Shown here piece by piece: positions 17,995 through 18,180 of a DNA stretch of 25,546 bases. Source of the stretch: a virus; the IMG/VR virus record IMGVR_UViG_3300010392_004285; one strand, given 5' to 3'. Below the pieces are notes generated by a model, which had not been told where the DNA came from, made no database searches, and saw nothing but the letters and a program-made list of their open reading frames with translations. Each line of letters opens with the position of its first letter. Within the stretch, counting starts at the first letter, position 1. The translations under genes and the position numbers were made by a program.

Positions 17995-18180
17995 TTAATA
18001 TACTCCTTGGTGTGTTCCTTTCTTTTTTTCTATTTGTTCTATCTGTTGTTTTTCATTTGATTTTTCTAAGTATGATATGAAATTCGGTATAGCTATCGCT
18101 AGTAATATAGCAAAAATAACTACAACAACCATTACCTCTATCAAAGTGAACGCCTTTGTATTTTTTATCCATTTTACCAT
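17995..18180 (-). CDS. Type IV pilin/pseudopilin-like small protein (class III signal-like N-terminus)
   Basis: It is 61 aa: MVKWIKNTKA|FTLIEVMVVVVIFAILLAIAIPNF. This matches the N-methylation motif (K/R)G|FTLIE followed by a ~20 aa hydrophobic helix, but with Ala rather than Gly at position -1. It is coupled on both sides by ATGGTAA overlap upstream and a 6-nt gap to gp46. Confidence 0.45.
   Translation of the reverse strand: MVKWIKNTKAFTLIEVMVVVVIFAILLAIAIPNFISYLEKSNEKQQIEQIEKKKGTHQGVY

Follow-up and report, generated by a model that had tools for sequence, protein, structure and literature searches.

The window analysed here is the whole of a 25,546-nt record from IMG/VR, a collection of predicted viral sequences (IMGVR_UViG_3300010392_004285; 34.8% GC). 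On its minus strand lies an open reading frame (ORF) encoding a protein of 61 residues, MVKWIKNTKAFTLIEVMVVVVIFAILLAIAIPNFISYLEKSNEKQQIEQIEKKKGTHQGVY, here called the mini-pilin. Judged by its sequence, the mini-pilin is a prepilin-type N-terminus with essentially nothing past the α1 helix. It has at least 34 relatives, all on phage-like metagenomic contigs. We hypothesise that this headless prepilin is made during infection and acts as a decoy or poison of the host's type IV filament machinery, and we give this hypothesis a probability of roughly one half.

The mini-pilin and its pilin-like N-terminus

A preliminary description of this stretch had noted an ORF with a basic leader, MVKWIKNTKA, with Ala instead of Gly at position -1 and with a very short mature part, and had compared it to the processed N-terminus of type IV pilins and pseudopilins. 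All these features are present, and three kinds of analysis bear out the comparison. The Pfam N_methyl model (PF07963) matches residues 6–31 with a score of 36.6 bits (gathering threshold 21.2; E = 2.8e-9), and the NCBIfam model TIGR02532 gives 31.1 bits against a cut-off of 16.3, so that both curated cut-offs are exceeded in the search that the preliminary description had proposed; the lack of an N_methyl match, which it had named as grounds for refutation, is thus not the outcome. Of the full-length NCBIfam models, PpdD, Myxococcus PilA and GspG match best, though at their N-termini only. The published PilFind rule, which was re-implemented here, requires the pattern [GAS]-x4-[DE] within 35 residues, at least 14 uncharged residues, one transmembrane (TM) segment in the first 50 aa, and a protein no longer than 350 aa. 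The mini-pilin has A-FTLI-E at residues 10–15, followed by 23 uncharged residues downstream of Glu5 and a single hydrophobic segment, and all 34 members of the family conform to the rule.

AlphaFold2 (AF2), run on the family alignment, predicts one continuous helix from residue 13 to residue 54. The predicted local distance difference test score is 86–96 for residues 11–40 (88–96 for residues 11–30) and 51–62 for residues 41–61. The extended α1 helix of pilins, which spans about 50 residues, is therefore predicted, and its proline at mature position 22 (Pro22, here P32) is conserved. Three other features of type IV pilins are absent. The leader, which is otherwise basic and 10 aa long, ends in Ala and not in Gly. 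There is no globular head, there being only 27 residues beyond the N-terminal part of α1 (α1-N), with no predicted strand and no Cys. Finally, the gene is not found near genes for type IV pili (T4P), type II secretion systems (T2SS) or competence (Com), its neighbours being gp46, TM266, a gene related to the major vault protein (MVP) and gp47; none of the 35 window ORFs scanned matches the PilB/C/D/M-Q or Gsp families. Taken together, the hidden Markov model (HMM), PilFind and AF2 results describe a prepilin-type N-terminus without a head, with a predicted mature part of 51 aa. A profile search of the whole library gave 229,294 matches at E ≤ 1e-3, with only the mini-pilin's own cluster at 1e-30, which places the protein inside an enormous pilin superfamily.

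The coordinates of the ORF and its parts are listed in Table 1. Within them, the Ala at -1 is encoded by GCG at 18151–18153, Phe+1 by 18148–18150 and Glu+5 by 18136–18138. An ORF of this length might arise by chance or belong to a gene on the opposite strand. Both possibilities are ruled out by its homologues, by a low ratio of non-synonymous to synonymous substitution (dN/dS), and by its tight packing between two genes on the same strand. Over the first 40 codons of seven DNA copies, pairwise dN/dS was 0.04–0.24, computed with synonymous sites near saturation, the exception among informative pairs being L018/L011 at 0.50. The mini-pilin gene is, on this comparison of sequences, a real and conserved gene.

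The first protein search returned 14 full-length relatives of 61–73 aa, all of them containing PF07963, and the family alignment (A3) holds 34 members of 59–83 aa. Two lineages are referred to below. Group A consists of the window, loci L008–L019 and contigs from IMG/VR that are 64.5 and 40.7 kb long; group B consists of L001–L007, L020, L094, L098, L102–L104 and others. Glu5 (E15) is invariant over the 34 members, and for Phe1, Thr2, Leu3, Ile4 and Pro22 (F11, T12, L13, I14 and P32) conservation reaches at least 90%, Pro22 being invariant in alignment A1. The leaders carry a net charge of +2 to +5, consistent with an N-in topology, and in group A the leader is nearly invariant. Purifying selection thus acts on the pilin-specific residues, and not on hydrophobicity alone. 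The preliminary description had allowed that the peptide might be a mere membrane anchor; that alternative is weakened by a Glu5 that never varies and by a Phe1 and Pro22 kept in at least 90% of 34 divergent members.

Beyond α1 the family has a variable linker, followed by a motif that reads VEVITQEQE or similar in group B and PAIEQ/QIEQ (xIEQ) in group A. The extreme C-terminus is also conserved, as xKL in group B and HQG(V/I/D)Y in group A, and both group A motifs are found on the tail of the mini-pilin in the window. A different role can be built on these motifs, in which α1 would be only an N-in/C-out anchor and the conserved periplasmic tail would bind an envelope component unrelated to type IV filaments, for instance a protease, an enzyme of peptidoglycan or a porin, or else TM266, the bitopic membrane protein encoded alongside. 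Such a role would explain why tail motifs are common to both lineages and the last residues are conserved, why there are no pilus genes nearby, and why, throughout group A, the gene comes coupled to that of another bitopic protein with a periplasmic helical tail. However, the constancy of Glu5, Phe1, Pro22 and a K-[GA]-F cleavage motif over such divergence is more than a generic anchor would require, conservation and confidence in the predicted fold are both lowest in the tail, and group B keeps the mini-pilin without TM266. We therefore consider a role of the tail as an anchored display rather unlikely.

The residue at -1 is Ala in 14 of the 34 members and Gly in the other 20. In those mini-pilins with Ala whose DNA was inspected, the codon is GCT (4), GCG (4), GCA (3) or GCC (1). 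As all four Ala codons are used, Ala is held by selection and is not a recent slip. Among 162 fetched proteins of the pilin superfamily there are 17 with Ala at -1, and 15 of these are mini-pilins. According to one review, the Gly at the end of bacterial leaders is invariable (PMC4471445). The authors of PilFind, on the other hand, state that PilD 'cleaves at a glycine or alanine', and their rule allows Gly, Ala or Ser (PMC3244431).

This raises the question of whether Ala at -1 makes the mini-pilin a substrate that is cleaved poorly or not at all, and which would occupy the prepilin peptidase (PilD/GspO) and so starve all host pilins and pseudopilins of processing. Such a decoy would fit the selective maintenance of Ala, its concentration in mini-pilins, the unusually invariant leader of group A and the reviewers' invariable Gly. 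It is harder to square with the canonical Gly in more than half of the family and with Ala as a normal cleavage residue in the PilFind work. Moreover, Ala and Gly both occur in the same genomic slot, so the function of the family cannot depend on uncleavability. A pure peptidase decoy is weakened by this coexistence, and we regard it as improbable.

The genomic slot of the family

The preliminary description placed the gene next to gp46 and stated that its translation is coupled to that of the preceding, repeat-rich membrane protein. Both statements agree with the junctions found (Table 1): the mini-pilin start overlaps the stop of TM266, and the ATG of the gp46-like ORF follows closely after the mini-pilin stop. 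The ATGGTAA overlap recurs in each of the six group A loci examined, where the upstream junction reads GACAAATGGTAAA, a single synonymous GAT being the only difference. The junction to gp46, TAACGGGGGATG, is identical in four of six related loci (L017, L019, L008 and L014); it is lengthened by 3 nt in L018 (TAACGGGGGCGAATG) and is different in L011. On these junction sequences the mini-pilin is translationally coupled on both sides, and it is probably co-transcribed with gp46.

Group A has its genes in the order gp47, p171, metallopeptidase, lipoprotein, MVP-like, p72, TM266, mini-pilin, gp46 and, further on, UvsX. Within this lineage the proteins diverge to different degrees, L018 being identical to the window at 69% of positions in the mini-pilin, 70% in gp46, 78% in the MVP-like protein, 54% in TM266 and 86% in UvsX. 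In group B the order is helicase, small 'DF(I/V)TNSSS' proteins, mini-pilin, gp47, gp46, radical S-adenosylmethionine (SAM) protein and WYL. Here the mini-pilin abuts gp47 and not gp46, its stop usually overlapping the gp47 start, and gp46 is only about 21% identical to that of the window.

The small group B proteins are paralogous, start with MK(I/V)K.DF(I/V)TNSSS, and flank the mini-pilin–gp47–gp46 genes on both sides. They have no Pfam family on record, and are carried by L001, L020 (e.g. 4566..6023), L094, L197, L210, L243 and others.

Since the first loci had been found by means of the pilin itself, an unbiased survey was made using a profile of ten gp46 proteins, which identified 71 viral contigs. 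A mini-pilin of 61–103 aa is present in 20 of these, always on the same strand as gp46. Two are group A contigs, in which it directly precedes gp46. Among the 18 from group B, 15 mini-pilins end no more than 13 nt from the gp47 start, two end at 245 nt and one at 2.3 kb. The remaining 51 contigs have other small genes, or the helicase itself, in the slot. In addition, P0021 (locus L100), which is a close homologue, is found among other genes altogether, away from any gp46 or gp47. The occupancy of 20 out of 71, together with P0021, indicates that the mini-pilin is an accessory occupant of a fixed but variable slot, and not an obligate nuclease partner. An obligate partnership with gp46/gp47 was accordingly rejected as the main explanation.

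As a nuclease partner, the mini-pilin would tether or regulate the gp46/gp47 (Rad50/Mre11-like) nuclease at the membrane. Only about ten of its residues would be cytoplasmic, and these would be lost if the leader is cleaved; the many gp47–gp46 contigs with other genes in the slot, and the displaced P0021, also tell against it. What speaks for it is the position of the gene immediately upstream of gp46 or gp47, often overlapping, in lineages whose gp46 proteins have diverged so far. We consider it very unlikely. The synteny with gp47 and gp46 most likely reflects vertical inheritance and shared timing of expression, and not physical partnership. A patchy distribution of this kind is typical of genes for host interaction or competition.

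The slot also bears on whether the mini-pilin could be a lysis or membrane-permeabilising peptide, of the holin or antiholin type, as its small size, single TM segment and lysine/glutamate-rich tail might suggest. It is located in a replication and recombination block and not beside an endolysin, its pilin motifs are conserved, there is no match to a Pfam or PHROG holin, and its PHROG matches are pilin-like. A lytic function is thus hardly to be expected.

Relatives and a proposed action on host filaments

The family leader and α1 patterns were used to scan one genome per species from 185,579 bacterial and archaeal species. No mini-pilin was found among the matches listed. The best bacterial matches among them are pilins and pseudopilins of 128–201 aa with Gly at -1 and at most 42% identity over residues 1–56; they come from Pseudomonadota, Desulfobacterota, Myxococcota, Bdellovibrionota and Nitrospirota, and none is close. 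The style of the leader (MLQKL+N.K[GA]) resembles that of Geobacter and Desulfobacterales pilins, which is only a lead to the host.

The best matches of known structure are Geobacter-type PilA-N (9egp_A, E = 3.6e-18; a further match at 1.4e-16; also 7tgg_A) and Myxococcus xanthus PilA (8tj2). Geobacter PilA-N (geopilin domain 1; PDB 9egp, 7tgg and 2m7g) has a leader equal in length and similar in style (MLQKLRNKKG, compared to MVKWIKNTKA), and its mature form is also an all-helical headless peptide, of 61 aa compared to 51 aa in the mini-pilin. The headless Geobacter pilin is reported to be recognised, processed and assembled by a conventional type IVa pilus apparatus (PMC6201914). PilA-N differs in being bacterial, in having Gly at -1, and in being encoded in a pil cluster, where the pilA-C gene that follows it supplies the head. 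The neighbours of the mini-pilin, by contrast, are TM266 and gp46, which have no pilin-related Pfam match, and the likeness ends after α1-N: the BLASTP alignment covers the first 41 residues, with 51% identity, and goes no further, and the PilA-N profile alignment has no conserved columns in the tail. TM266 was considered as a PilA-C-like partner and rejected, as it has no family match and looks helical or disordered by eye. Because the similarity ends after α1-N and there is no PilA-C-like partner, PilA-N is treated here as an architectural analogue and a possible source, and the comparison of sequences is not taken as a family assignment.

The closest parallel from phages is a truncated PilA ('P-PilA', the N-terminal ~60 residues) described in six virulent Pseudomonas phages, for which early superinfection exclusion is proposed, either by incorporation into the pilus of subunits without phage-binding sites or by inhibition of assembly (Sztanko et al., Cell Rep 2026, PMC12952977). 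By analogy, the two cases share an N-terminal helix of about 60 residues without a head and the same two candidate mechanisms, and the phage of the window may likewise be non-temperate. The preliminary description had suggested that such a peptide might insert into or poison the assembly of host pili or T2SS, as a means of superinfection exclusion or receptor masking; this idea is plausible and agrees with the one put forward for P-PilA. The mini-pilin, unlike P-PilA as described, comes from uncultured T4-like lineages of about 35% GC, often has Ala at -1, and has tail motifs of its own and a fixed gp47/gp46 slot. A tblastn search of the phage collection with the 61-aa mini-pilin gave nothing at E up to 10, a search in which the low-complexity filter may mask the hydrophobic helix. 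A similar search with an approximate Pseudomonas aeruginosa PilA sequence as the query gave only Acinetobacter phage MD-2021a.

Three further viral systems are comparable in part. A prophage-encoded FimU (P-FimU) of P. aeruginosa is incorporated into pili and blocks tip-binding phages (PMC12952977). Like the proposed mini-pilin decoy, it is a phage-encoded protein of the pilin superfamily which uses the host pilus machinery and protects one phage against another, but it is a full-length minor pilin with a head, expressed from a prophage, and leaves pilus function intact. PfsE (PA0721), an inner-membrane peptide of about 30 aa from Pf phage, binds PilC and abolishes pili (PMC8764522). It is alike in kind, being a tiny phage peptide of the inner membrane that acts on the T4P machine and leads to superinfection exclusion, but it is not pilin-like and has no sequence relationship to the mini-pilin, so that the analogy is functional only. 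The pilins PilA1/2 of the archaeal provirus SNJ2 hijack the host machinery, and share a viral class III signal peptide with the mini-pilin, but are full-length, have heads and form real pili (PMC12426801).

Pilin-like proteins of phages are thus already known, and the mini-pilin joins the recently noted truncated phage pilins. What is distinctive in its family, judged from the sequences, is the slot ahead of Mre11/Rad50, the frequent Ala at -1 and the family-specific tail motifs. The mini-pilin matches PHROGs 27437, 11263, 11596, 3433 ('pilin'), 10597 and 13280, of which 10597, 11263 and 13280 are short, and genes for N_methyl relatives are present on 178 IMG/VR contigs. When the query is a 96-aa pilin-like protein of a viral contig, pilin-like genes do turn up in the phage collection, among them the 'pilin' of Synechococcus phage ACG-2014f (KJ019099) and a pilin-like hypothetical protein of Vibrio phage 033B. 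The ACG-2014f protein differs from the mini-pilin in its length (123 aa) and in its location, which is an island of auxiliary metabolic genes beside psbA/psbD and not gp46/47.

A separate pilin-like family of ~140 aa (KGFTLIELIMVTIILGILAAVAIPRY..., with an acidic C-terminus) makes up about 35 of the best 80 matches on viral contigs. Its IMG/VR loci are L027–L034, L038–L044, L047–L053, L056–L059, L061, L063, L068, L070, L071, L074, L075, L079 and L080. A related subfamily, with the sequence FTLIEL(I/V)MVTIILG, accounts for another dozen or so of the same 80. In several contigs, gp47/gp46-like genes lie 2–5 kb downstream.

Type IV pili, T2SS and competence pseudopili are key bacterial organelles and common phage receptors, and phages are known to manipulate them by means of Tip, Aqs1, Zip, PfsE and P-FimU. 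Our hypothesis adds the mini-pilin to these manipulators. Its leader, Phe1, Glu5, Pro22 and hydrophobic helix are features that pilins use for entry into the membrane, recognition by the peptidase and packing, and they suggest the following sequence of events. The gene, which is embedded in a gp55–gp47...gp46–UvsX block of replication and recombination genes, would be expressed in the infected cell along with these genes. The product would insert N-in/C-out into the inner membrane, where it would be recognised by the machinery with which the host builds type IV filaments (prepilin peptidase, platform protein and pilin pool). As it has no head, it would then either poison or cap assembly, or enter the fibre as a blank subunit without a receptor surface. 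The advantage to the phage would be early superinfection exclusion, or a shutdown of pilus, T2SS or DNA-uptake functions.

Several considerations weigh against this hypothesis. We infer cleavage, methylation and an effect on pili from the sequence features alone, and the hypothesis presupposes that the host has type IV pili or a T2SS. The early timing is inferred only from the gene neighbourhood and from the absence of the T4 late-promoter motif TATAAATA. With Ala at -1 instead of the Gly that the review cited above calls invariable (PMC4471445), processing could be poor or absent. Lastly, the tail motifs that are the family's own (xIEQ/VEVITQEQE, and HQGVY or xKL) would be superfluous for a decoy consisting purely of α1, and their conservation hints at another target.

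A more elaborate scheme, which we offer as doubtful speculation, takes polymerisation from the argument made for Geobacter PilA-N. The mini-pilins would be an old phage-contig family of headless pilins polymerised by the host type IV motor, giving either a thin fibre specified by the phage or a permanently capped machine. Ala or Gly at -1 would tune processing by the peptidases of different hosts, and the β-prone tail motif (VEVITQ/AIEQ) would dock by strand addition on a host pilin or tip protein. The slot ahead of Mre11/Rad50 would then mark a co-expressed early programme that closes the pilus or DNA-uptake gate while host DNA is degraded.

If the decoy hypothesis is true, no simpler dominant-negative or stealth pilin could be conceived than this 51-residue pilin 'stick', which is conserved across deep-branching uncultured T4-like phages. 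Together with the truncated PilA of Pseudomonas phages, it would make the strategy widespread in environmental viromes and not an oddity of Pseudomonas. The family also provides a natural Gly/Ala series at -1 for probing the specificity of prepilin peptidases, and such peptides could serve as tools or leads against pili. If the mini-pilin is only an anchor, the finding is an ordinary one.

Expression signals and neighbouring genes

The window looks, from the types of gp55, gp47, gp46 and UvsX that it encodes, like part of a T4-like phage genome (Table 1). No integrase or repressor was found among 35 ORFs scanned in the 25.5-kb window, and no tRNAs were found in it. Nor is there a close relative in the cultured-phage collection, where a megablast search with 7 kb around the mini-pilin gene gave nothing.

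Table 1 Features of the mini-pilin gene and its neighbourhood in the window.
Feature	Position	Strand	Description and basis
Mini-prepilin ORF	17995..18180	(-)	61 aa + stop; headless type IV pilin-like; ORF list, translation, HMMs, homologues, dN/dS
Leader MVKWIKNTKA	18151..18180	(-)	Residues 1–10; net +3; presumed prepilin-peptidase site at its end
α1-N segment FTLIEVMVVVVIFAILLAIAIPNF	18079..18150	(-)	Residues 11–34; predicted single transmembrane/pilin-assembly helix; has Phe+1, Glu+5, Pro22
Polar tail ISYLEKSNEKQQIEQIEKKKGTHQGVY	17998..18078	(-)	Residues 35–61; predicted helical, then disordered; alignments A1/A3, AF2
ATGGTAA start/stop overlap with upstream TM266 ORF	18174..18180	(-)	7 nt; translational coupling
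Spacer CGGGGG, mini-pilin TAA to gp46 ATG	17989..17994	(-)	6 nt; TAA-CGGGGG-ATG
gp46/Rad50-SbcC-like nuclease subunit	15805..17988	(-)	Pfam SMC_N, AAA_23; tblastn to phage 'recombination endonuclease subunit' genes
TM266, 266-aa bitopic membrane protein	18174..18974	(-)	One TM at about residues 165–182; translation, homologues
gp47/Mre11-SbcD-like nuclease subunit	24076..25059	(-)	PHROG 100 SbcD-like, E = 8e-64; Pfam Metallophos
gp55-like late sigma factor	25074..25535		

Sites resembling sigma70 promoters number 43 in the window compared to 45.6 expected, so that there is no enrichment and no convincing promoter. The window encodes a gp55-like late sigma factor, yet the motif TATAAATA is absent from the whole of it (3.5 occurrences expected). 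Between the stop of the MVP-like gene and the start of p72 there is a 28-nt hairpin (19227..19254) with a perfect 11-bp stem (ATGGGTAGGGC-loop-GCCCTACCCAT), followed on the coding strand by TTT only. It may be a terminator or an element of RNA stability, and may mark the 5' boundary of a p72–TM266–mini-pilin–gp46 unit. The same translation-initiation context, GAAAGGATATGAGTCATGG, precedes the 72-aa ORF (19206..19226) and TM266 (18972..18992), both on the minus strand.

TM266 has an acidic/basic repeat-rich N-terminal region, followed by the TM segment and a helical periplasmic tail. In all group A loci that cover the region, a homologue with 36–100% identity immediately precedes the mini-pilin. 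The protein is absent from group B, and its co-conservation with the mini-pilin is confined to the lineage of the window. The DAERIK/DARR-type basic repeats vary in number between homologues, and there are conserved motifs towards the N-terminus (WGTxEYFxR...RDxWxT) and the C-terminus (DPYxQxDDRYGxxxDKW). No family was found for TM266 in Pfam, NCBIfam, PHROGs or PADLOC, and a PADLOC search for defence systems with the mini-pilin and four neighbours gave no match.

Between gp47 and the MVP-like gene lies a putative metallopeptidase (22891..23346, minus strand) that matches PhageMetallopep (PF18894; E = 5e-18) and is 82–85% conserved in L018 and L019. The MVP-like gene itself (19262..21754, minus strand) encodes a full-length homologue, of 830 aa, of the eukaryotic MVP. 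It matches MVP_shoulder (E = 6e-25) and Vault_3 (3e-6) in Pfam, and a phmmer search of PDB finds MVP entries (4hl8, 7pkr and others) at E = 8e-9, with residues 476–767 in register with residues 478–773 of MVP. The protein has no PHROG family and is 77–79% conserved in L018, L019 and L008. An MVP encoded by a phage looks unusual. On the plus strand, a glycan-biosynthesis island of ~10 kb (45..10049) encodes four glycosyltransferases (GT1-like, GT2 and Glyco_trans_1_2), three SAM methyltransferases and two NAD-dependent epimerase/dehydratases.

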